Below the pieces are notes generated by a model. That model saw nothing but the letters and a program-made list of their open reading frames with translations. It ran no database searches and was not told the DNA's origin. From NCBI GenBank assembly GCA_965267605.1, contig OZ254088.1, forward strand, positions 1,354,790-1,418,789: a stretch of DNA of 64,000 nucleotides, given 5' to 3'. The translations under genes and the position numbers were made by a program. Source of the DNA: Vicingaceae bacterium. Its GTDB lineage: Bacteria > Bacteroidota > Bacteroidia > Flavobacteriales_E > Vicingaceae. Positions 39,654 through 57,335 of this stretch are shown piece by piece. Position 1 is the stretch's first letter. Every line of letters begins with the position of its first letter.

Positions 39654-39802
39654 TGAGCTATACTAAGATTGCATCCCCTCACGAGAATAACAAATCAAAT
39701 CCGTGTCGTTTCTACCGCTCCTGAGGAGGAAATACCGTTCCCTTGCCGCTGTAGGATTTGAATACATGAACCTGTATCTTGGCTGTAGCCAACCCACTAC
39801 TT

Positions 39803-42331
39803 ATGAAACGGTTCATTACAGTATCCGCCACTGCAATCATGTGTACAACCTTGTGCGCTCAGCAGATCGTTAAGAAAACGAATCCAGACTACCACCCAAA
39901 TCTGGAGAAAACGAAGCAATTCAAACGTGCCTACTACTACGCGCTGGAGCGTGAAGTGCCAGAAGGGTTGAACCCCGATGCTGCGCGCTGGGAACAGTTC
40001 AAAAAAAGCAAAGCCAATACACTGAAAGATGACCAGATCAATGCTACTGCGAATTGGGTAAGCTACGGTGCCAAGAATTTCGGAGGACGACTCATCTCTC
40101 ATGCTTTAGACCCGAACAATGATTCTATTGTATGGGCGGGAAGCGCTAATGGAGGGCTCTGGCGGTCAGATGACCTCGGTATGCATTGGGAACCCTATAC
40201 CGATGACCTTCCTTCAATTGCAATTGGTGCTATAGGCATCAACCCCAAAGACCCTAATCAGATGTTGATTGGTACTGGTGAAGGGTACGGACTTTCAAGT
40301 GAGTTTGTTTTTGGTGTTGGTGTGCTGAAATCCTTTGATGGCGGACAAACTTGGGTCCCCACATCGATCTCAGCAGCACTTTCCAGTGGTTTTGGCTCAC
40401 ATAAGATGGTTTGGCACCCCCAAGACACCAATATTGTAAACTTCGCCTCTAACAGTGGAATCTTCCACTCTACAGACGGTGGAATGAACTGGACCAATGC
40501 ATTGCCGCTTGTTGGTTGCGACATTATAGCAGATCCACAGGCCCCAGACACGTTATACGCATGCGCCCAGTACTACAACTCTTCACTTCTAGGGGGAATG
40601 TACCGATCGACCGATAAGGGAGCCACCTGGACCCAACTCACCAATGGTCTCCCTCCGGACGCTCAAATAGGTTTTACATCACTTACGGTTCACCCTACAC
40701 ACACCAACGTACTTTACGCCTGCATTGGTGAGCCAAGGAATTCACCTAACATTGGTAAGACCAGAGGGGTATTCAAGAGCTCCGATTACGGCAGTACATG
40801 GCGCCAATTAACCACATCGGTTGACGTGATGTGCTATCAACCTCCTTACCAGAATGTTTGTCAGAGCTGGTTCGCCAATGTGATAACCGTATCACCAACA
40901 GACACGAATACTGTGCTGGCTGGAGGCACACGCCTTTGGATATCTACGGATGGTGGCACTAATTGGGGGCTTCATGATACCGTTTGCAATAACAAACGAG
41001 GACGTGTTCACCCCGATCATCATTCCATCTATTGGCATCCAACGAGTCCCAACAAGATATACCTGTTCACGGATGGAGGATTCAATTATACCTCAGATGC
41101 GGGACTAAGCTGGGAAGAACGCAACACTAATCTCAATACGTTACAATTCTATTTCATCACACCTACGGAAGCGCACAACGATTTGATCATTGGAGGAACT
41201 CAAGACAACGGGGTGTTCTCCAACTGGGATGCACATGCAGATAGCAATTGGACCCATGAAGTTTACGGTGATGGTTTCGATGTTGAACTCCACCCATCCA
41301 ATGACTCCATTTGGTACTGCACTACCTACAATAGTTCAGGATCACGTCTGCGATCAACTACCGGAGGCCGTACGTGGGAAGTGATTGACTCTCTAACGGA
41401 CAAGCAAAGACTTTGGCGCATGCCCATAGAGCTAGACCGAAACAACCCGAACATCCTGTTCAGTGCCAGCTCCAATAACATGTACAAGTCTACAGATGGT
41501 GGCACCACGTGGCAACAGATGAATGGTTTCAACAATATGACCATCATTGAAGTAGACCGTACGGATCCTAACCTGGTTTATGCTACATCCACTTGGAATG
41601 GCGGCTTTTTACGTTCTCTGGATGGAGGTAATACCTGGTCGGTTATTCCTGAGCCTGGTCCGGGAGGTAACATTTCAGATTTGGAATCTAAACCCGGAAG
41701 ACCAGGTCACCTGTATGCTACCAGAGGAACTTTTTCGGGTGGATTGCAGATCTTCTATTCCTCTGATTCTGCAAGCACATGGTCTAATATCACCGGAGAT
41801 TTTCCAGCCATACCTGCAAATACAATAGCACCAAGTCCTCATGACGCCAATGACCTCTATGTTGGAAGCGATCTTGGCGTATATTTCAGTGACGACCATG
41901 GACTAACATGGACAGAGTACAGCGACAATCTGCCTAACACAGTTGTTGCAGACCTTCATTATTATGAAGCAGACAGCACGTTGAGGGCTGGAACCCATGG
42001 TCGCGGATATTGGGTAACCAAAGCTGCTGCACCAACGGTTGGGGTCAGCGTTAATGAACACCAGACCAATATTCACGTCAACCTGTATCCTAATCCGGCT
42101 AACGAGAACGTGCGCATTCAGATAACATCGGAATCCAGGGTCAATGAGATACAGGTACTTGATCAGTTAGGACAAGTGGTTACGCATATTCCTGTCATCT
42201 CAGACACCAAAGTGAATTCAACATGGAATTTGAAGAACAGCGTAGGCCATCGTGTTGCGAATGGTATATATTTCATTCAGGTTAAAACCAGCCGCAAGGC
42301 CATTGTGAAGAAGCTGGTCATTAATCAATGA
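39803..42331 (+). CDS. BNR/sortilin(VPS10)-repeat beta-propeller protein with a T9SS type A C-terminal sorting domain
   Basis: Many S-x-D-x-G-x-T-W repeats (STDGGTTW, STDKGATW, SDDHGLTW). The C-terminal NLYPNPANENVRIQ...GIYFIQVKT...KKLVINQ is a T9SS C-terminal domain. Confidence 0.8.
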   Translation: MKRFITVSATAIMCTTLCAQQIVKKTNPDYHPNLEKTKQFKRAYYYALEREVPEGLNPDAARWEQFKKSKANTLKDDQINATANWVSYGAKNFGGRLISHALDPNNDSIVWAGSANGGLWRSDDLGMHWEPYTDDLPSIAIGAIGINPKDPNQMLIGTGEGYGLSSEFVFGVGVLKSFDGGQTWVPTSISAALSSGFGSHKMVWHPQDTNIVNFASNSGIFHSTDGGMNWTNALPLVGCDIIADPQAPDTLYACAQYYNSSLLGGMYRSTDKGATWTQLTNGLPPDAQIGFTSLTVHPTHTNVLYACIGEPRNSPNIGKTRGVFKSSDYGSTWRQLTTSVDVMCYQPPYQNVCQSWFANVITVSPTDTNTVLAGGTRLWISTDGGTNWGLHDTVCNNKRGRVHPDHHSIYWHPTSPNKIYLFTDGGFNYTSDAGLSWEERNTNLNTLQFYFITPTEAHNDLIIGGTQDNGVFSNWDAHADSNWTHEVYGDGFDVELHPSNDSIWYCTTYNSSGSRLRSTTGGRTWEVIDSLTDKQRLWRMPIELDRNNPNILFSASSNNMYKSTDGGTTWQQMNGFNNMTIIEVDRTDPNLVYATSTWNGGFLRSLDGGNTWSVIPEPGPGGNISDLESKPGRPGHLYATRGTFSGGLQIFYSSDSASTWSNITGDFPAIPANTIAPSPHDANDLYVGSDLGVYFSDDHGLTWTEYSDNLPNTVVADLHYYEADSTLRAGTHGRGYWVTKAAAPTVGVSVNEHQTNIHVNLYPNPANENVRIQITSESRVNEIQVLDQLGQVVTHIPVISDTKVNSTWNLKNSVGHRVANGIYFIQVKTSRKAIVKKLVINQ

Positions 42332-46460: not shown

Positions 46461-49400
46461 CTACCTACCACCAACACCTATAGTATTGGAATTGTTCTTA
46501 GGTGCTGATGGTTTCACAGTTGGTTTCGTAGGCGTTGTTGGACGCGTGGCTGGCTTTGTCGTCTTCACCGGAGTGGTCGGCTTTGTAGTTGCAGGTTTCG
46601 TGGCTGGCTTGCTCGCAGGCTTGGAACTGCCGCTACTAATCACCTTACCTACATTCTTAATTACACTTGGTGTTGTAGGTTTCGGCTGTGGCTTTGGCTG
46701 CGGTTTTGGTTGCGACACTGGCTTCGTTGGAGCCGGCTTGCTTGGTGCAGGCTTCGTTACCTTAGGAGCAGGACGCGGGGCTGGCCTAGGAACCGGCTTT
46801 GGAGCTGGCTTAGGTTTACCTTCCAATCCACCTGTTCCAGTTGCTGGAACAGGTCTTTTCACCGGACCATTCCTTACACCGCCCGGTGGAGCCATCCTTC
46901 TCTGGTTTCCTCCGCCCGGAGTACATGAGCTAGCCTCGCTCAATGTTACCAGTATAACGCAATCCTGAAGATCGTACCAGCTAACATTGGTCTTGTTCGT
47001 ACCAAGCTCAAATAGGTAGATCGCCTGGTTTGGTTGCAATACCATCTTACCATTCGCAACATACCCAGTCAGGTAAGCTTCAATATTGCTTTGTCCTGCA
47101 AATCCTGGCACATTAGGAACAGGATCGTTATGACGCAACACTTTCACAAACGCTGGGTGCGAAGCTGAGCTATACTGGTACGCAGGAGAACTTTGGTTGC
47201 TCGGACTGTAAGATTTCGCTTTAACAGTGATGTTGGTATTCGCTGGATATGTTGATGGCGATTTCCACACGTGCTGATATCCATCGTTCACATCGCTGGA
47301 AGTATTGAAGCCGGCATAGGTTCCAAACGGATCCACGGTGGAGCCACCAAAGTTCACTTGTACCATAACCGGGTAATTCGCTCCAGTACCGCCTACCTTA
47401 AGCGCACATCCCAGTACCTTGACCTCAGCGCAGTAGGTCTTGTTCGGCTTCACTCCGCCACCCCCAATATCGAAGTCGAACGGCTCACACTTGATGGTTA
47501 CAGAACCCGAAGCCATTCCTGCCCTGGTCTGTGCTGTTACCGTATAAGTATGTGTTCCAGTGATATTGTCAGTCCATTTTACACGATTGTTTGAGAATGT
47601 CCATCCATTAAACATTTTACCATCTTTCTTCACCTTGATCTCATTCTGCTTAGCGTTCAATACCTCAAACTCCACTTCTGCAATACAATCGTCATCAGTA
47701 AATGGTGAAGAGCCCGGCTTCTTCAATGTTACCACCGGAGGCGGATCACAAGGCCCCAGGTAATCTCCATGGGCCTGGTGGGCTGGCCAGGCACTCTTAG
47801 GAATTGTAATGGTTTGAGGGTTACCATGATTTCCCGGTGGAATGTGACAAATAGTAATTCTCTCCTCACAGGTTACTGTTCCGCTAGCCGATGCACTACC
47901 TCCTGCATTTGTTACGCTAACTGTATAATTAACTGTGCCTGTAATTGTTTCTTTCCACGTCACCTGATTGTTGCCAAACGACCAGCCTGTGAACGGAGCC
48001 CCATTCTTAGTAACAGTTACTTGGTTAGCGGAACTGATATTCGTTGTTGTGAACTTCATATCAGCCTCGCAGTTAGGGTCCGTATAAGGAGATTGCCCAG
48101 GTTTTGTCCTCACCACAGTTGGAGGTGGCGGACATGCACCTTGAATTGCTCCTTGAGCCTGATAAGAAGCCCATTGGCTTTGCTTAATCGTCTTGGTCTG
48201 CGTATTGTGGCAGATCGTAATATCTGGATCACAATCAATGATTGCTGTTACGCTTGCAGTTCCACCTGGGGTGGTTGCTGTCACCACATAAGTTGTTTTG
48301 CCTGTGATATTATCATTCCATGTAATCTGGTTGTTGGCAAAATTCCAGTTCGTAAATGGTGAGCCATTCCTCGTTACCGTAAGCTCATTCCGGCTATTCA
48401 CGAACTTCGACTCAACAATCACATCTGCCTTGCAATTTGGATCCATGTACGGAACCGTAGCTGGCTTCTTCAGTGTAAGAATTGGCCTTGGCGTCATTGA
48501 ATTCGAACAAGGCCCTTTCGTTGCCCCTTTAGACTGATAGGTTGGCCACTCGCTTTCCTTAATCTGAACAGCCTTAGGTGAAAGCTGACCTGGTGCTTTG
48601 TAGCAGATCCAAATCAATTTATCACACTTGATCGTGATAGAGGCACTGGCCGAACCTGCCGAATTTGTTCCTGTGATGACATACGTTGAATTCTTCGCAA
48701 TTTGATCCGTGAAGACCACCAAGCCATTGGTGTACGTCCACTTGCTCACTGGGAACACTGCGCCATCCTTTTTGATAACCACACCTTGCTTCAGTTTCAC
48801 GTTGGTTACCATAGCCTTAACCGTTTCTGTACAAGTGGTACTCGTGTAAACCGGTCCCTGCGGTTGCGTAATCGTAACCGTTGGCGGCAGCTCCTTGATA
48901 GGCTTAGTGTAGAAAATGCTTGTTGTCGCACTTGCCACGCCTACCCCGTTGTTCACTGTAATAACAACAGGATTTCCACCAGGCTTCAGGTTAGCTGTGA
49001 ATTGAATGGTTTGTGTAGCGCTGCTGAATGTGAATGCAGTTAAACCTTGTCCGTTTAAAGTCACTGTAATCTGTGACTTGGTAGAAATGTAAGTAGTGGT
49101 TGCCTTTACAACATGTGTAGCCTTGTTTGTTGAGAATGGATTCGTGCCCGGATCGGTGATCTTAACGGTTGGAGGCAATACCTTTGGCACTGGTGTGTAG
49201 ATCACCGTAGCTGACTTCGAATCACTCCCAGCACTATTTGTTGCCGTAACCGTAAGAACATTGTTCCCTTTGGCAAGTGTACTCTTTAAGGTTACCTGCC
49301 CTGTAAGTGTATTGAAGCCAAAGTTGCTTTGAGGCGCACCGTTCAGGCTAACTTTTACCTGTGATGCCGTATTTACATTGAGCACCTTTGCTGTCCACGT

Positions 49401-52400
49401 GAACGGTGCCGTCTGAACATTCTTCGGGCTTGTTGACGGATTCGTGATCTTAACAATAGGTGGAACCACTTTAGGCTTAGGCTTCTGGTATATCACCGTT
49501 GCGCTCTTACTATCTGTTCCCGCACTATTGGTTGCTGTAACCTGCAACAGGTTGCTTCCTAACACCAGGTTGGATGGAAGTGAAACAACTCCCGTTGAAG
49601 GTGTAAAGCTGAAGGTATTGGTCTGCGCGCCATTCAGTTTCACCACGATCTGATTCTTATTGGTAACGTTCAACACCTTCGCAGTCCATGTGAAAGACGC
49701 TCCCTGAACACTCATTGGAGAGATCAAAGGGTTGGTGATCGTAACCACGGGTGGAAGAACCTTCTCTGCAAGGATCGTAGTACCAGATCTTGTGGCTGAG
49801 CCCACCGAATTGGTAGCCGTTACCTTGAAGATATTGCTTCCCTTAATTAGTGTTGAAGGAAGTGTTACCTCACCTGTGTTAGCGTTGAAGGTATAGTTCG
49901 TTACCGTCTGCCCGTTTCGCTGCACCACCAACTGGTTCTTGTTCGTGATGTTAGTAACAACTGCTTTGAAGGTGTATGCTGCATTATAAACAGTCTTCGG
50001 GCTAGGTGAAGGAGCCGTAATCACCACTGTTGGTGGCAGCAACTTAGGTTGCTTCACATAGTTGATAACCACATTGTCAGAAGCTGAACCTGCTGAATTC
50101 GTACCCTTTAACGTTACAGAGTTAGATCCCAGTATCAAATTCAATGGCACCGTTACCTGCATCGTATTTGCGTTAAACGTGAAGTTGCTTTGATTAGCGC
50201 CATTCACTGTTAGTTGCAACTGACTCTTCTGGCTGATATTGGTTACCTGGGCGATAGCTGTGTATTGTGCAACCCCTGACTGGGCCGGGGAAACTGACGG
50301 CACAATAAACTTCACTGTAGGAGGATTAACCAACTTAGGCTTGTAAACAATCTGCGTAGACGCCTGAGCCGTTCCATCCTTGTTCGTTCCAATTACCGTA
50401 ATGTTGTTGCTACCCGGCACCAGTGTTAGTGGCAACTGTACCTGCCCGGTTCCAGGAATGAACGTGAAGTTTGTGGTTGTTGCACCGTTCACCTTCACAG
50501 TTACCTGGCTCTTCATGGTTACATACAGCACAGTTGCAAGCGCGTTGTAGTTTGCGCTATACACTGTTTTTGGACTCACCGCTGGAATCTGGAAAGACAC
50601 TATTGGAGGTCTCTTCGGAAGCACCGGGGGTGCGTATTCAATCACTGTTGACTTACTATCCTTTCCATACGCGTTTGTACCTGTGATCTTCACCGTATTC
50701 GCTCCCTTGAGCAGGTTAACCGGAATTGAGATCTGTTTGGTACTGGTAGAATATGTAAAGTTCAATGTGATGGAACCATTGATAGACACCACGATGTCTT
50801 TGGAAGACTTCACATGATGCACCGTACCACTTACCATGAACTGGTTGACGTTCACCTTGTACGGTGATGTAGCCGGTTGCAAAATGGTAACTACTGGAGG
50901 CGGACCAGAATCCTCGATCTGATATACGATCAGAGTTGCATCCTTTGCAGTTCCATCGGCATTCTTACCCATCAGTTCGAATGCGTTGTTGCCTTTGATC
51001 AATGTGGCCTGATACTCAAATTCGCCCGTTGTGGTATTGTACTTGAAGCCAGTAATCGATTTTCCATTCTGCTTGAAGTACAGATTCTTGGCATCGGTCA
51101 CATTCTTCACCTGAGCCTTAACCAGATAACTACTGTTCTTAACGGTGGCAGGTGATGTTGCAGGATCTGTGAAATTCACCAATGGTGGGTTCTTCGCCTG
51201 TACCTGCTTATAGAATATCGTCATTTGATCCTGGGCTGTTCCATCCAGATTCTTACCCTTGATCACTACTGAGTTCGCTCCCGGAACCAGAGGGTGTGTT
51301 GCAATTACCTTTTTGGTATTGGCATTGTAAACGAAATCGTAAATACGCTTACCGTTGAACAAGTACTCGATATCAGTCTTACTCCCCACGTACTTAACAT
51401 CTGTTGTAACTGTAGTGCTTGGTACGCTTGTGTTGTACGGTCTTGTATTTGGAACAATGATGTTCACGATCGGTGGGCGCTTGTCCGCAAGCTTTCCTCC
51501 GCCAACACCACCGGAACCAGAACCTCCGCTACCGCCAGAGCCACCGGAACCACCTCCACCAGAGCCGGAACCTCCGCCTCCACCGATGCCTCCGCCAGCT
51601 CCGCCACCACCGGAACCATCCCACTTATCCCAATCGATAGGTTTGCGCCCGAATTGCCATTCAACCGTAAGCCCTACGAAATGCTGAACATCATTCTTGA
51701 ACAAACCGGTTCTCGGGGCCTCAAAAGCCTGACCATCCAACTCACTGTGTAGTGGGAACGTCATTTTATGCTCAAAGATCATAGCAAAGCCCTGACCCAG
51801 TTGGTATCCAATACCATAGCCAAGGGTTGGTGCAAGGATGGAATTTCTTCTTCGGCTGTTAAATCCGTCTGATTCGTATTCACGGTCTCGGATTATTCCA
51901 CCTCTACCCTGTCCATCTGCTACGTTATCCCAGTTGTAAGGAGTGTTGCGGTCTTTCTGATCAATGTTGACTTTAGTGCTATAAAGTCCACCTCCACCAA
52001 ATCCATATAGCACGATGCCAGTCTGCTCGCGCAATCTGTTAAGACCAAGTACGAGTTCAGCAGAAGCTTCGTGCGCCAGTGTTGAATGATTGGCGAAATA
52101 CCTACCACCAAGAGAGTCCGTAAAGTTTAGTGAAGGATCGTATGTTCCATTCACTGAAGGATCAATGTTTGCTGTGAACGAGGGATCTCTGTCTGCACCT
52201 AGAGTCCAGGCACATAGATAACGTGCTCGTATATCAACGTGCAGGAAGCGTCCTCTTTTCTTGTAAATGGAGAAGCCGAAATGGCCTCCACCGCCTAACC
52301 CGGCCTTGTCATCTACATCACTGGTTTGAAATGCACCTCCAAAGCTGGCACCTAGTTGAAATCTACCACCGTTTGTGTGAGTGAATGTATTCTGCCCAAA

Positions 52401-52463
52401 GGAATTGGGAAGAAGAAAAACGATGAGAATGAGCGAAAAAAAGTAGCGTAATTTCCTGTTCAT
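46461..52463 (-). CDS. Giant surface protein of about 2,000 aa: signal peptide, an N-terminal OMP beta-barrel-like domain of about 260 aa, a poly-Gly/Ser linker, more than 13 tandem Ig-like repeats, three Cys-containing modules of about 120 aa, and a basic Pro/Thr/Lys-rich C-terminal tail
   Basis: Signal peptide MNRKLRYFFSLILIVFLLPNSFGQ. Alternating-hydrophobic strands end in ...FVGLTVEWQF (aromatic-terminal barrel signature). The linker is GGGGAGGGIGGGGGSGSGGGGSGGSGGSGGSGSGGVGGG. The repeats have the pattern PP.V.I..P..SP..V....FT..A.V.NV..K.Q..V..NG....NF.F...TG.V.LP..L..G.N...VTATN..G. Start trimmed to ATG 52463. Confidence 0.8.
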   Translation of the reverse strand: MNRKLRYFFSLILIVFLLPNSFGQNTFTHTNGGRFQLGASFGGAFQTSDVDDKAGLGGGGHFGFSIYKKRGRFLHVDIRARYLCAWTLGADRDPSFTANIDPSVNGTYDPSLNFTDSLGGRYFANHSTLAHEASAELVLGLNRLREQTGIVLYGFGGGGLYSTKVNIDQKDRNTPYNWDNVADGQGRGGIIRDREYESDGFNSRRRNSILAPTLGYGIGYQLGQGFAMIFEHKMTFPLHSELDGQAFEAPRTGLFKNDVQHFVGLTVEWQFGRKPIDWDKWDGSGGGGAGGGIGGGGGSGSGGGGSGGSGGSGGSGSGGVGGGKLADKRPPIVNIIVPNTRPYNTSVPSTTVTTDVKYVGSKTDIEYLFNGKRIYDFVYNANTKKVIATHPLVPGANSVVIKGKNLDGTAQDQMTIFYKQVQAKNPPLVNFTDPATSPATVKNSSYLVKAQVKNVTDAKNLYFKQNGKSITGFKYNTTTGEFEYQATLIKGNNAFELMGKNADGTAKDATLIVYQIEDSGPPPVVTILQPATSPYKVNVNQFMVSGTVHHVKSSKDIVVSINGSITLNFTYSTSTKQISIPVNLLKGANTVKITGTNAYGKDSKSTVIEYAPPVLPKRPPIVSFQIPAVSPKTVYSANYNALATVLYVTMKSQVTVKVNGATTTNFTFIPGTGQVQLPLTLVPGSNNITVIGTNKDGTAQASTQIVYKPKLVNPPTVKFIVPSVSPAQSGVAQYTAIAQVTNISQKSQLQLTVNGANQSNFTFNANTMQVTVPLNLILGSNSVTLKGTNSAGSASDNVVINYVKQPKLLPPTVVITAPSPSPKTVYNAAYTFKAVVTNITNKNQLVVQRNGQTVTNYTFNANTGEVTLPSTLIKGSNIFKVTATNSVGSATRSGTTILAEKVLPPVVTITNPLISPMSVQGASFTWTAKVLNVTNKNQIVVKLNGAQTNTFSFTPSTGVVSLPSNLVLGSNLLQVTATNSAGTDSKSATVIYQKPKPKVVPPIVKITNPSTSPKNVQTAPFTWTAKVLNVNTASQVKVSLNGAPQSNFGFNTLTGQVTLKSTLAKGNNVLTVTATNSAGSDSKSATVIYTPVPKVLPPTVKITDPGTNPFSTNKATHVVKATTTYISTKSQITVTLNGQGLTAFTFSSATQTIQFTANLKPGGNPVVITVNNGVGVASATTSIFYTKPIKELPPTVTITQPQGPVYTSTTCTETVKAMVTNVKLKQGVVIKKDGAVFPVSKWTYTNGLVVFTDQIAKNSTYVITGTNSAGSASASITIKCDKLIWICYKAPGQLSPKAVQIKESEWPTYQSKGATKGPCSNSMTPRPILTLKKPATVPYMDPNCKADVIVESKFVNSRNELTVTRNGSPFTNWNFANNQITWNDNITGKTTYVVTATTPGGTASVTAIIDCDPDITICHNTQTKTIKQSQWASYQAQGAIQGACPPPPTVVRTKPGQSPYTDPNCEADMKFTTTNISSANQVTVTKNGAPFTGWSFGNNQVTWKETITGTVNYTVSVTNAGGSASASGTVTCEERITICHIPPGNHGNPQTITIPKSAWPAHQAHGDYLGPCDPPPVVTLKKPGSSPFTDDDCIAEVEFEVLNAKQNEIKVKKDGKMFNGWTFSNNRVKWTDNITGTHTYTVTAQTRAGMASGSVTIKCEPFDFDIGGGGVKPNKTYCAEVKVLGCALKVGGTGANYPVMVQVNFGGSTVDPFGTYAGFNTSSDVNDGYQHVWKSPSTYPANTNITVKAKSYSPSNQSSPAYQYSSASHPAFVKVLRHNDPVPNVPGFAGQSNIEAYLTGYVANGKMVLQPNQAIYLFELGTNKTNVSWYDLQDCVILVTLSEASSCTPGGGNQRRMAPPGGVRNGPVKRPVPATGTGGLEGKPKPAPKPVPRPAPRPAPKVTKPAPSKPAPTKPVSQPKPQPKPQPKPTTPSVIKNVGKVISSGSSKPASKPATKPATTKPTTPVKTTKPATRPTTPTKPTVKPSAPKNNSNTIGVGGR

Positions 52464-52524
52464 AAGCAATACGTTTCCTCTAGCTGTAGCAGTTATCATG
52501 CCAAAAGGAATATTGCCCTAAAAG

Positions 52525-52976: not shown

Positions 52977-55604
52977 CTATCTGGAAACACTAATCTTCCT
53001 CACCACCTTGTCTCTTTCAGGTGAGGTAATGGTTAATAGATATGTACCGGAAGGCAATTCACGAACAGGCAACTTCAGATGGTTCAAGCCATTATGGGTA
53101 GGATACGTTGTAGAACTAACCTGCTTACCTGCAATATCGTGGATATCTAATTGCACTCCATGGCCCTTCGAGTGAAATTCAATCCTGAACAGATCATTGG
53201 TTGGATTGGGATAGATCAATACATTTTCCAGACTTGGTTTCTTGATCTCAATACCACTTACAAGATCTTCATACAATGGGGTTTCCCACACTCCTCTACC
53301 GTACGTGGCCACACGAAGCCTACTTTCACCGGGACTCCCATAGAAGATCTCGAGTTCACGCGTCTCCACGTGTGGTAAATTGTTGTCGTAAAGCGTCCAG
53401 GCATTCAGGTTATCATTCCTATAGTATATGGCTCCATCTGTTGCCAGGTACATTCCTCTGGTCCCCGTTCTGTCAAATACAATTGATTTAAGAGGTACTG
53501 CAGGTAAGGCTGAATCCATCCTGGTCCAGGTTTGTCCAGCATTCTCACTGATGTAAACAAAGCCAACGGAGGTACACACTGCAACCCTGTTCTCATCAAA
53601 GGGGTCCACTGCAATGTCATTGATGTTACCACCTATAGTACCAGGCAGGTACTGCCAAATAGGAGCTCCGGATAACACGTTGGTTGATTTATACACCCTG
53701 CTTTGTGCAGCAACGTATATGTAATGGATATTGGATGGACACAATTCAATATGCGAGAGCTTCCCCACAAACTGGAAGTTCTTAGAAACATTCACCCATG
53801 CGATGTTGGTATCACCGAAGCTGTCATGGCGATACAGAGTATCGTACCCCACAAATACACGATTTCCAGTGTTTTCATCAACGGCCATAGGTGTTAACCA
53901 GTTGCCATCTCCATGCTGAGGGGGTTTCTCTGGACGGTACCTTGAAAAACCACCATTATCAGTTCTGATCAAATGTCCATACTGAGTGGCAGCGATCTGC
54001 ATGCTATCATTTTTTGGGTGTATCCAACACTCCATTCCATCCGCACCGTACCAGTGTCTCCACTTGTGCTGAGACCCAACCATCATATTCAAACCATTAT
54101 CCTGGGCGCCACTCGCCATCAAATCTTTATTCAGATGGGAATTCCCAATCCTATACAGCTGATGAATGCCCATGCCACTGGTAAGATCTACAAAGTCATT
54201 TCCTTGATTGATGCTTTTGAACAAGCCCCCATCTGAACCTACGTAGATCACACCATTGATGTACTTAATAATCTCTATATCCGCATGTACGTACGTTCTC
54301 GTTTCTGAAGGGTTTCCGAGCTTCGTTTTACCCCAAACCCAATGGCACTGATGTGTAAACGAAACGCCTCCATCGAGTGATTTATACATGTGCAGCCCTC
54401 CAATGTGTACCTCGTTGGGGTCCGTATTTGAAGCTGCAATAGCCATGTCCCGGTACGACTGTCTTCCTATATAGTCCTTGCCACCTGTGTAGTCTGTTTG
54501 GATGGAAAAATTAGATCCCCCGTCAACTGAACGGTAGAGGTAACCAAACTCCCAGGTACCGGTGCTGTCTTTCTTGTCCTGAACGATGTACACCATATTG
54601 GTATCTGCAGGTGTTACGGCAAGCTTCATTCTATTGGAACCTACGATGCCGTTTGAAACAACATTGAACGTATTACCACCGTCAACAGACCTAAAGAATC
54701 TGGTGCCACAAGCATACATAATGTTGTTGTTACCAGGCTTGTACATGACATCTTCAACAGACCCCACTACCAACTGATTCCAGGTAGCTCCACCATCGGT
54801 CGTTTTGAACAAACCAACGTAACGCATCGCCACATAGATAACATTCGGATTTCCAGGCTCCACCAGGATCGTAGTAATTTTTCCCGTGTTGATGAGCTGT
54901 GGAATCTGCGTAAAAGTGCTTCCCCCATCCGTACTTACCATCAATCCTACATTGTTAGCGATATAGAGTTTATTAGCCACATTCGGATCTACGCCAATCG
55001 CCCAGATCTCCATATCGTTAAACTGATCACCCATAGGCATCCATGAGTTACCCCCGTTGGCCGACTTCCAGAATCCACCGCCCGGAGAACCTACATACAT
55101 CAATTGTTGCTGAACGGGCTCAATGTAACAGGCAGTAACCCTACCAACGCCCGGTGCGTAACCCGATGTTACATCGTAAGACAATGGTCCTAGCTCCGTC
55201 CAGTTACCAAGGCTCTTATTCCCTGATTTAAGGTTACTATGCACTTCTTTAATAGCCGCTGCCTGCGCCTTCTTACTCATTACAGTCCCATCAGCCTGAA
55301 GTTTGAGCTGTGCGCCATGTTCCCAACGTTTGAATAGCTTATAACCTGACCCAGGTCCTCTACCCGCTTTATCGAAATACTTTTTTGCAGCGTCTTGAAC
55401 CTTTTTGAGTTCCACTCCATCCTGCTCCATCAACTCAAAGAGTTCCTGACTGTTTCCAGACAAAGGAAGCACCAGCATTGCAATCACTGCAACACTTAAT
55501 GAGCGTATGTAGCCGGTCTTCACAATGGAATATCTCATGCTCACTAAATAAAAGGATTCCTCTAAATTACTTTGGTTAGTGCGAATATTATAACCAGATT
55601 TCAA
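52977..55604 (-). CDS. BNR/sortilin-repeat beta-propeller protein with a T9SS type A C-terminal sorting domain (paralog of 39803..42331)
   Basis: STDGGSTF, TTDGGATW, SVDGGNTF, SENAGQTW repeats. The C-terminal VLIYPNPTNDLFRIEF...GTYLLTITS...KISVSR is a T9SS C-terminal domain. Confidence 0.8.
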   Translation of the reverse strand: MKSGYNIRTNQSNLEESFYLVSMRYSIVKTGYIRSLSVAVIAMLVLPLSGNSQELFELMEQDGVELKKVQDAAKKYFDKAGRGPGSGYKLFKRWEHGAQLKLQADGTVMSKKAQAAAIKEVHSNLKSGNKSLGNWTELGPLSYDVTSGYAPGVGRVTACYIEPVQQQLMYVGSPGGGFWKSANGGNSWMPMGDQFNDMEIWAIGVDPNVANKLYIANNVGLMVSTDGGSTFTQIPQLINTGKITTILVEPGNPNVIYVAMRYVGLFKTTDGGATWNQLVVGSVEDVMYKPGNNNIMYACGTRFFRSVDGGNTFNVVSNGIVGSNRMKLAVTPADTNMVYIVQDKKDSTGTWEFGYLYRSVDGGSNFSIQTDYTGGKDYIGRQSYRDMAIAASNTDPNEVHIGGLHMYKSLDGGVSFTHQCHWVWGKTKLGNPSETRTYVHADIEIIKYINGVIYVGSDGGLFKSINQGNDFVDLTSGMGIHQLYRIGNSHLNKDLMASGAQDNGLNMMVGSQHKWRHWYGADGMECWIHPKNDSMQIAATQYGHLIRTDNGGFSRYRPEKPPQHGDGNWLTPMAVDENTGNRVFVGYDTLYRHDSFGDTNIAWVNVSKNFQFVGKLSHIELCPSNIHYIYVAAQSRVYKSTNVLSGAPIWQYLPGTIGGNINDIAVDPFDENRVAVCTSVGFVYISENAGQTWTRMDSALPAVPLKSIVFDRTGTRGMYLATDGAIYYRNDNLNAWTLYDNNLPHVETRELEIFYGSPGESRLRVATYGRGVWETPLYEDLVSGIEIKKPSLENVLIYPNPTNDLFRIEFHSKGHGVQLDIHDIAGKQVSSTTYPTHNGLNHLKLPVRELPSGTYLLTITSPERDKVVRKISVSR

Positions 55605-55702: not shown

Positions 55703-56275
55703 ATGAAGGAACGTTCAGATAGCGAGTTGGTTGCAGAATTCAAAGCTTCTGGCGATCCCGCATGCGTGGGGGAGCTTTTCTCTCGCTATCACGGACTTAC
55801 CTCAGTCCTTTGCATGAAGATCCTCAAGGATCCAGACAAAGTGCAGGATGCCATGATGGATGTGTACGAGCGCGTCATCAATAAACTACCCACCCATAAC
55901 GTCACCAACTTCAGTGCGTGGGTGTACAGCATTGCACGAAATCATTGCCTAAATCTGGTTACCCGCAACAAAGAAGTTCGGCTTGATCCGGATAATCATA
56001 AAATTCCCGGTGAGGATTTTATGGAAAATGAGAATGCCTTGGGTCAAATCATCGAAAGAGAGGAAAACCTCACTGATCTGGAAGACTGTGTTGAACAACT
56101 GAAGGATGAACAGAAGACATGTATTAAACTGTTTTTTCTTCAGCAACTATCTTACAATCAGATTGTTGAGAAAACCACTTTCAACATGAAGAAAGTAAAG
56201 AGCTTCATACAAAATGGTAAAAGAAATCTACGTATTTGCATAGAACGAAAACAAGATGAACGAGGGGAATCATAA
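55703..56275 (+). CDS. RNA polymerase sigma-70 factor, ECF subfamily
   Basis: Region 2 (FSAWVYSIARNHCLNLVTR) and region 4 HTH (QKTCIKLFFLQQLSYNQIVEKT). Confidence 0.85.
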   Translation: MKERSDSELVAEFKASGDPACVGELFSRYHGLTSVLCMKILKDPDKVQDAMMDVYERVINKLPTHNVTNFSAWVYSIARNHCLNLVTRNKEVRLDPDNHKIPGEDFMENENALGQIIEREENLTDLEDCVEQLKDEQKTCIKLFFLQQLSYNQIVEKTTFNMKKVKSFIQNGKRNLRICIERKQDERGES

Positions 56276-57335
56276 CAATTGGCCAACCATAGAACCTGCG
56301 AATCTTGATCAATTGATCAAGTATAAACGCGGTGAGCTTTCTGATCAGGAGGCACACAAGGTTGAGCTCTTCCTTTCAGAGTTCGATGCTGATTTGTTGG
56401 ATGGCATCAGCCTGGACGATCTCGAAAAACTTCGGGATGTTGAGGTAAGGCGACCAGTAAATGCTAAACGTGGATTATCTCCTTTAAGAATTGCTGCTGG
56501 CATTGCCGCGCTGGTGGGCATCCTGGCACTTACCTACGTGCTCACGCAGGACAAATTGGCTGGAGATGACATTGTAATGCATGAAGCAACGGATGAGGTT
56601 GTAAAGGATGTGGAGGACGATACACACACGGAAGCGGTTGTAGAAGAAGAATCTCCAACCGAGACGGTTAGCGATCACCAGGAAGAGAGCACAGAAGACG
56701 TAGCGCCTCAGGAAAATATAGATATTGAGTCAGATGAGGTTGTAGGTCACACACCAGCTGTTAACCCTGACATCGAAAATGACAATGAGAGTAAGAAGGA
56801 TAAGTCTACCGATAACTCGAACAACCTGAAGTTATCCGACAATAATGAAGATGCACTTACCGAAGAAACCGAAGCGATAAGTGCAGCTAAATACAAGATC
56901 GCGGAGAAAGACGCGGTCGTTAAAACAGAAGCCCCTGTTGTATATACGATTATTGAGAAGTACAACAACCCGAAAGACAAGCCTGCTGATGTTCCAAAAA
57001 CTGCAAGGGCATTTGCTAAGTCTACTGTAGGTGTTTCAAAGAATACTTACCGAAGAAAAGTATCTCCTTCATTTCCTGGGGGTGACGTTGCTTTAATTAA
57101 ATGGTTTGAAGACAATTACACGGAATTAATTAAAGAGGGTGATCAACCATTTAAACTTACCTTTAAAGTAACCAAAAAGGCAAAATTGGTGGATGCCGTG
57201 TTCACTGATATTGACAAGAACAAAACCCCCGCGTTCAGTAAAAAACTGAAGGAGATGCCCGACTGGAACAAGCCTGAGTCCAACTACGATCCGTTAGACA
57301 TCTACTATTCTATTTGGATAGCTCCAAAGCAATAA
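56256..57335 (+). CDS. Putative anti-sigma factor (one transmembrane helix, acidic periplasmic region)
   Basis: N-terminal LIKYKRGELSDQEAHKVELFLSE matches the anti-sigma (LxxYxxGELxxxExxxVExxL) motif; transmembrane helix IAAGIAALVGILALTYVL. It overlaps the sigma gene. Confidence 0.6.
   Translation: MNEGNHNNWPTIEPANLDQLIKYKRGELSDQEAHKVELFLSEFDADLLDGISLDDLEKLRDVEVRRPVNAKRGLSPLRIAAGIAALVGILALTYVLTQDKLAGDDIVMHEATDEVVKDVEDDTHTEAVVEEESPTETVSDHQEESTEDVAPQENIDIESDEVVGHTPAVNPDIENDNESKKDKSTDNSNNLKLSDNNEDALTEETEAISAAKYKIAEKDAVVKTEAPVVYTIIEKYNNPKDKPADVPKTARAFAKSTVGVSKNTYRRKVSPSFPGGDVALIKWFEDNYTELIKEGDQPFKLTFKVTKKAKLVDAVFTDIDKNKTPAFSKKLKEMPDWNKPESNYDPLDIYYSIWIAPKQ

Follow-up and report, generated by a model that had tools for sequence, protein, structure and literature searches.

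A composite repeat joining an Ig-like domain to a widespread, unnamed mini-domain in a giant Vicingaceae protein

A giant open reading frame (ORF) in the genome of a Vicingaceae bacterium encodes, in its distal part, three tandem cysteine-containing units of about 120 amino acids (aa), which raises the question of whether each unit is a domain of its own and how far it extends beyond this lineage. We analyzed the gene within a stretch of 64,000 nucleotides (contig OZ254088.1, positions 1,354,790 to 1,418,789, assembly GCA_965267605.1), hereafter the window. A sequence-only reading of the same DNA had taken the units for an unrecognized domain, perhaps a lineage-specific binding module with two disulfides. 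The repeat is real, and each unit combines a known fold with an unnamed, very widespread mini-domain, which partly confirms the earlier observation and partly supports its interpretation.

Composition of the three units

The units (U1, aa 1294-1424, 131 aa; U2, aa 1425-1545, 121 aa; U3, aa 1546-1672, 127 aa) together span positions 47484-48620 of the window, with boundaries set from the cysteine positions, the repeat boundaries, and a MAFFT alignment. Alignment and BLASTP both confirmed three tandem copies, with pairwise identities of 43-48% (E 1e-35 to 1e-38) that are far beyond chance and slightly below the value of about 50% first proposed. Four cysteines per unit were invariant in U1-U3 and the W..(Y/H)Q..G motif was present in all three, in agreement with the sequence-only reading; the histidine after the first cysteine, previously described as invariant, is not, U1 reading ICY. 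Tandem Repeats Finder (TRF) detected no DNA-level tandem repeat within the units, which therefore reflect old divergence and not an assembly artefact. The range 47490-48930 originally assigned to the repeat does hold the units but also takes in R10 (48621-48890), the last of ten upstream immunoglobulin (Ig)-like repeats, and the end of R9. Likewise, the units do follow the Ig-like repeats, but a C-terminal domain (46920-47483) separates them from the Pro/Thr-rich tail that they were thought to adjoin.

In the MAFFT alignment, the last ~88 aa of each unit aligned with repeats R1-R10, leaving the remaining 33-43 aa as an N-terminal extension. The Ig-like part of the units and the ten upstream repeats form one family, the units having an added cysteine pair: by BLASTP, the Ig part of U3 matched R7, R9, R3, R6, R2, and R8 (E 4.5e-8 to 7e-4) and was 39% identical to R10 (E 1e-19). 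It shows the seven-to-nine-strand Ig sandwich fold, although no Pfam Ig or Big model scored above its gathering threshold, the best being Invasin_D3 (17.1 bits, cut-off 33; E 0.008) and Big_13 (14.2 bits, cut-off 27; E 0.064). Its cysteine pair would join the first and last strands, in contrast to the canonical B-F pair of I-set and Big Ig domains. PKD and CARDB domains, which had been named as families to which the unit might map, were rejected, as neither the giant protein nor any unit had a Pfam PKD, PKD_4, or CARDB match at E<=1. The composite anatomy is thus well supported: what had appeared as one unrecognized domain is, for the larger part, an ordinary Ig-like domain, and only the N-terminal mini-domain is unnamed.

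A widespread mini-domain with two subtypes

The mini-domain comprises 33-43 aa and, in all three units, two cysteines ~26-33 residues apart together with Gly33 and Gly37. Searching with U3 as the query retrieved 15 small unrelated proteins that matched only its first ~39 residues (~30% of the query) at 52-82% identity; the mini-domain by itself was 60-82% identical to the modules of unrelated small proteins. The family was then defined by profiles A1 and A2. Profile A1, built from 14 sequences, found hundreds of ~70-aa proteins, from sources including Lacinutrix, Thermoanaerobaculia, and Gemmatimonadota, that consist of a signal-peptide-like N-terminus and one module. Among 120 one-module proteins, 98 have an N-terminal hydrophobic stretch and 116 have, past the first 22 residues, exactly the two cysteines of the module. 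Searched against 1.84 billion representatives (clusters at 50% identity) with no word index, the profile matched 8,910 proteins at E<=1e-3, of which 2,903 reached E<=1e-10 and 187 reached E<=1e-30; the largest number of matched stretches in a single protein was 45. A genome scan further identified at least 421 loci with the mini-domain, mostly in Bacteroidota (Crocinitomicaceae, Fluviicola, Sphingobacteriaceae, Cyclobacteriaceae, and Saprospiraceae), with others in Myxococcus xanthus, Bdellovibrionota, Gemmatimonadales, Gammaproteobacteria, Anaerolineales, a candidate phyla radiation (CPR) bacterium, and Nitrosopumilaceae archaea. The proposal of a lineage-specific module was rejected on this ground.

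Across 825 distinct instances of the mini-domain, C6 and C39 were present in 100% and G33 and G37 in 99%, a conservation pattern that suggests a C6-C39 disulfide. Structure prediction with AlphaFold2 (AF2) was run on U3 only, as the mini-domain alone and as the whole unit. The isolated mini-domain was modeled at a predicted local distance difference test (pLDDT) score of 95.9, with strands at residues 2-7 and 17-22, a helix at 23-31, and a strand at 35-36, and is thus predicted to fold on its own as a beta-hairpin, a helix, and a short strand. The whole-unit model (predicted template modeling score, pTM, 0.83) had a confident junction and kept the same secondary structure in the mini-domain.

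Two subtypes could be distinguished. Positions 7/29/32/34 read His/His/His/Asp in 687 of the 825 instances (H-type) and ~119 are Q-type, with Tyr or Phe at 29, non-His residues at 7 and 32, and Ala34, leaving few intermediates; tandem duplication links the instances, so these all-or-none counts overstate their independence and are descriptive. H-type modules also have a PPGNxxN loop. The Q-type often goes without loop residues 8-13 and has a strong consensus of its own (TIKQSQW..YQ.QGA..G.C). At the four signature positions U3 reads HHHD, U2 HYQA, and U1 YYKA, which makes U1 and U2 Q-type. Hidden Markov models (HMMs) built from external modules only recovered all three units, which therefore belong to the same mini-domain family: the H-type model scored U3, U2, and U1 at 76.6, 21.7, and 16.6 bits and the Q-type model at 67.6, 57.7, and 47.1 bits, respectively. 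The secondary-structure topology of the model would place His7, His29, His32, Asp34, and the PPGN loop at one pole, formed by the end of strand 1, the end of the helix, and the start of strand 3. That the four residues are kept or lost together suggests one site at this pole of the H-type, most plausibly a divalent-metal site. Q-type arrays were found in P0179 and P0180, and P0137 alternates Q-type with H-type modules. The 21-45 copies in P0179 (2317 aa) and P0180 (1694 aa) are nearly all of the His-less Q-type, and the fold and the array habit are therefore independent of the His3Asp cluster.

Three arrangements of the mini-domain were found: single copies preceded by a signal peptide, head-to-tail arrays reaching ~45 copies, and alternation with Ig domains. 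Over 324 proteins, the module-to-module spacing clustered mainly at 40-49 aa and secondarily at 120-139 aa. Bacteroidota homologs of the giant protein carry 1-15 modules each; one from Vicingaceae (P0136) has an N-terminal OMP_b-brl domain, one Cys-pair Ig domain, and then ~15 modules, and the alternation of module and Ig domain recurs in P0138, P0190, P0196, P0209, P0272, and P0226. In P0196, which is collinear with the giant protein (35% identity over 1675 aa), the extra modules are ~40-aa insertions placed exactly at the Ig-Ig junctions of window repeats R7-R10, and the module therefore behaves there as an optional cassette. The partner domains in 70 multi-module proteins were all extracytoplasmic (DUF5666, FecR, Cadherin-like, DUF4114, PKD, RTX, and tails of the type IX secretion system, T9SS), and prepilin-like and lipoprotein hosts of the module were also found. 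Two prepilin-type proteins (P0001 and P0002) have an N-terminal methylation motif (PF07963) and an H-type module at the extreme C-terminus, the position at which the disulfide-bonded D-region of type IV pilins sits. In a protein of a Nitrosopumilaceae archaeon (L047, 5824-6648), a signal peptide and Gly/Ser/Thr spacers accompany one H-type module and a long, helical tail rich in Lys and Glu. A protein of M. xanthus (L069, 5719-6330) resembles a lipoprotein (LLAGGC) and combines a single module with a Cys-rich C-terminus. Both hosts belong to cultured or well-studied lineages.

Nothing significant for the module came from Pfam, NCBIfam, PHROGs, or PADLOC, whether the giant protein, its units, the module itself, or representative homologs were scanned; sequence searches of the PDB with U3 and profile A1 gave chance matches only, and no mention of the mini-domain sequence was found in the searchable literature. 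The mini-domain is thus widespread but unnamed. Its independence and spread, its predicted fold, and its division into two subtypes are likewise well supported.

Layout of the giant protein and its neighborhood

Table 1. Features of the giant ORF, with positions in the window and residues of the translated protein.
Feature	Position	Strand	Residues	Remarks
Giant ORF	46461..52499	-	2012 aa	
Signal peptide and outer-membrane beta-barrel-like domain, N-terminal	51630..52463	-	aa 13-290	
Gly/Ser-rich linker	51483..51623	-	aa 293-339	read from translation
Ig-like repeats R1-R9	48891..51482	-	aa 340-1203	~96 aa each, without Cys; MAFFT
Ig-like repeat R10	48621..48890	-	aa 1204-1293	Cys-pair subtype, C1223/C1292; no mini-domain ahead
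U1 mini-domain	48492..48620	-	aa 1294-1336	C1299 and C1331; Q-type
U1 Ig-like domain	48228..48491	-	aa 1337-1424	Cys pair C1356/C1423
U2 mini-domain	48129..48227	-	aa 1425-1457	C1430 and C1456; Q-type, 8-14 loop deleted
U2 Ig-like domain	47865..48128	-	aa 1458-1545	Cys pair C1477/C1544
U3 mini-domain	47745..47864	-	aa 1546-1585	C1551 and C1584; canonical H-type, ITICHIPPGNHGNPQTITIPKSAWPAHQAHGDYLGPC
U3 Ig-like domain	47484..47744	-	aa 1586-1672	Cys pair C1605/C1671
C-terminal domain	46920..47483	-	aa 1673-1860	~185-190 aa; Cys 1690/1698 and 1847/1859; unannotated
Basic Pro/Thr/Lys-rich tail	46464..46919	-	aa 1861-2012	~150 aa, PKPxPKP repeats; read from translation

Translation of the giant ORF probably starts not at the listed ATG but at Met13 (52461-52463), as judged from alignment, and the signal-peptide-like stretch MNRKLRYFFSLILIVFLLPNSFGQ follows this residue. 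The N-terminal domain and the N-terminus of P0136 shared 30% identity across 274 aa (E 7e-34), and the latter bears a precomputed PF13505 OMP_b-brl match; Pfam itself gave no match, including none to Invasin_beta, on aa 1-300 of the giant protein. The N-terminus of P0196 weakly resembles T9SS PorG. At the other end, the C-terminal domain had no Pfam match and was 68% identical to the C-terminus of P0196, 57% to that of P0278, 52% to that of P0207, and 32% to that of P0208, always lying after the last module-Ig unit in these homologs; we take it for the probable functional head of the stalk. For the basic tail, spanning of the cell envelope and binding of a polyanion are possibilities. The tail region contains a 12-nt DNA repeat (46678-46714), and P0136 likewise ends in a basic, though shorter, tail. 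Further homologs of the giant protein were found in Vicingaceae, Sphingobacteriaceae, and Microscillaceae. The assembly collection held no record of the exact protein, and the genome-contig scan no close relative of the 379-aa U1-U3 region. Base composition along the gene was unremarkable. Three plus-strand ORFs of 107-197 aa (47271-47594, 47769-48362, and 48702-49043) are most likely shadow ORFs, because they have no family matches and lie antisense to a well-supported gene.

The neighbors in the window (BNR/sortilin proteins with T9SS tails, DUF5686, and an extracytoplasmic function (ECF) sigma factor) point to Bacteroidota. The giant gene is flanked by two paralogs of the BNR/Sortilin-Vps10-like type, each with a T9SS C-terminal sorting domain (39779-42331 on the plus strand and 52977-55604 on the minus strand). 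The ECF-type sigma factor gene (Sigma70_r2/r4_2; 55703-56275, plus strand) is overlapped by 20 nt by an ORF of 359 aa (56256-57335, plus strand) that could encode an anti-sigma factor. Among six stand-alone loci, the only recurrence was an MFS_3 transporter at two related Thermoanaerobaculia loci (L006, 3605-5219; L084, 4001-5549), where the EntS-like gene directly adjoins the one-module gene, on the upstream side at one locus and on the downstream side at the other; L084 continues with an ECF sigma factor and a Ser/Thr kinase. On two independent contigs (L004, 4513-5213; L005, 55-755), a 159-aa ORF without a Pfam match ends 8 nt before the gene for the stand-alone protein P0020, and the two may form an operon.

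Proposed role of the mini-domains, and known systems

We consider it somewhat more probable than not that the composite units serve as cassettes of a surface stalk. Each consists of a mini-domain joined by a short Pro-rich junction to an Ig-like beta-sandwich of ~88 aa. The N-terminal barrel-like domain would most likely anchor the chain in the outer membrane, because the N-terminus of P0136, with which its ~270 aa share homology, is annotated as OMP_b-brl. The Gly-rich linker and thirteen Ig domains would then form a long stalk ending in the C-terminal domain and the basic Pro-rich tail, and the three mini-domains would be rigid, disulfide-stabilized elements plugged into the last Ig-Ig junctions, before the distal C-terminal domain, where they may stiffen or space the stalk tip. 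This rigid plug-in role is suggested by the high pTM with its confident junction, the very short connections at either end, and the cassette behavior seen in P0196, and the H-type copy in U3 may in addition hold a divalent metal. The surface exposure and the stiffening role, like the disulfides and the metal binding, are inferences. Several points weigh against such a picture. An 8-stranded outer-membrane protein barrel normally leaves its C-terminal extension in the periplasm, and the giant protein has no T9SS C-terminal domain. The putative disulfides and metal site derive from conservation patterns, in which tandem duplication links the instances, as stated above, and the six stand-alone gene neighborhoods share no conserved partner across phyla. 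Moreover, the one-module secreted proteins find no explanation in a spacer role, which argues that the module is active in its own right.

An intrinsic binding activity of the mini-domain is accordingly a serious rival. The H-type module might primarily be a metal-dependent binding or self-association module instead of a spacer, with Zn, Cu, or Ni held at His7, His29, His32, and Asp34; it could serve in metal capture, as stand-alone forms and long arrays, or in zipping chains between cells, and the active copy would then be U3, next to the distal domain, with U1 and U2 having an inert, structural part. The four potential ligands are kept or lost as a set and would cluster at one pole, beside the PPGNxxN loop that is often deleted in the Q-type; one-module secreted proteins exist, an EntS-like MFS_3 transporter adjoins the gene at the two Thermoanaerobaculia loci, and the B-repeats of staphylococcal Aap, which assemble with Zn, provide a precedent (PMC9704523, PMC9802226). 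The other four neighborhoods, however, show no linkage to metal-homeostasis genes, long arrays of Q-type modules only indicate that the fold and the array role do without the site, and a buried hydrogen-bond network is another possible reading of the His/Asp cluster, so that we regard this possibility as doubtful, if one to be taken seriously. A more specific version, in which the H-type is a disulfide-stapled, ~35-residue extracellular His3Asp metal-binding module that bacteria and archaea use both as a secreted metal-binding mini-protein and, in arrays of up to dozens of copies, as a metal-dependent zipper of cell-surface fibers, and the Q-type its metal-free structural derivative, appears unlikely.

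The cysteines allow another arrangement, in which the invariant pair links modules or molecules, or binds metal with the histidines, and the chains are cross-linked into a fiber or matrix. By our own topological reasoning, if strand 3 continued as a regular strand in antiparallel pairing with strand 1, the topology of the L9 N-domain, C39 would come to lie several residues from C6, and in arrays C39 lies only 7-9 residues before the C6 of the next module. Exactly two cysteines occur in one-module proteins, for which an internal pair is the simplest fit, the 99% conserved Gly37 before C39 permits a turn back to C6, and the AF2 monomer model places residues 37-39 with high confidence, all of which makes such cross-linking improbable. 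The stand-alone forms, small secreted proteins (~45 aa once mature) that contain Cys and are found very widely, could also be signaling peptides or bacteriocin-like toxins, with the copies in large proteins acting as displayed ligands, but no immunity, processing, or ABC-export genes lie beside the six loci inspected, the signal peptides are of the Sec type and not double-glycine leaders, and PADLOC gave no matches; we think this very improbable. Least of all do we credit the original notion that the ~120-aa unit forms one novel binding domain, specific to the lineage and carrying two disulfides. The unit does repeat as a block with four conserved cysteines, and the pTM of 0.83 suggests that its two parts pack in a fixed way, but the Ig part stands alone ten times upstream, and the mini-domain stands alone in thousands of proteins, recurs in arrays with a period of 41-49 aa, and occurs in many phyla and in archaea. 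With both parts occurring separately, a single 120-aa domain was rejected.

Modular surface proteins are a familiar class, and the architecture of the giant protein is in itself unsurprising. The mini-domain, of ~35 residues, occurs in ~9,000 protein clusters at 50% identity from many bacterial phyla and from ammonia-oxidizing archaea, yet Pfam, NCBIfam, PHROGs, and the PDB all lack an entry for it. Its definition would bring annotation to a recurrent part of otherwise blank giant Bacteroidota proteins as well as thousands of small secreted proteins now labeled hypothetical. The split between His3Asp and His-less modules also makes metal binding a directly testable hypothesis, for which the giant protein carries a natural negative control, its His-less subtype lying beside the H-type.

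Among known systems, the N-terminal domain of ribosomal protein L9 (NTL9), a split beta-alpha-beta mini-fold, ranks with those closest to the mini-domain. Periscope proteins have tandem repeats that are highly identical at the DNA level, so that the repeat number can vary, which sets them apart from the window units, 43-48% identical as proteins and without a TRF repeat. The order of domains recalls the inverse autotransporters intimin and invasin, with an N-terminal outer-membrane barrel, a chain of Ig-like domains, and a distal Cys-containing C-terminal domain; in contrast to these, the giant protein has no Invasin_beta match, its N-terminal domain is related to OMP_b-brl, and its C-terminal domain is unannotated and followed by a long basic Pro-rich tail. 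SasG and Aap offer a further likeness, as single-chain surface stalks in which a small domain (~50 aa) alternates with a larger beta domain (~80 aa). Their E/G5 rods have intimate interdomain contacts (PMC9704523), to which the alternation and the predicted rigid junction of the window protein may be compared. The two are related neither in sequence nor in fold, and the giant protein has no Pfam G5 match. In the window protein, an Ig sandwich takes the place of the larger domain and a predicted two-Cys beta-beta-alpha-beta unit that of the small one, the host is Gram-negative, and anchoring would be provided by the N-terminal barrel.

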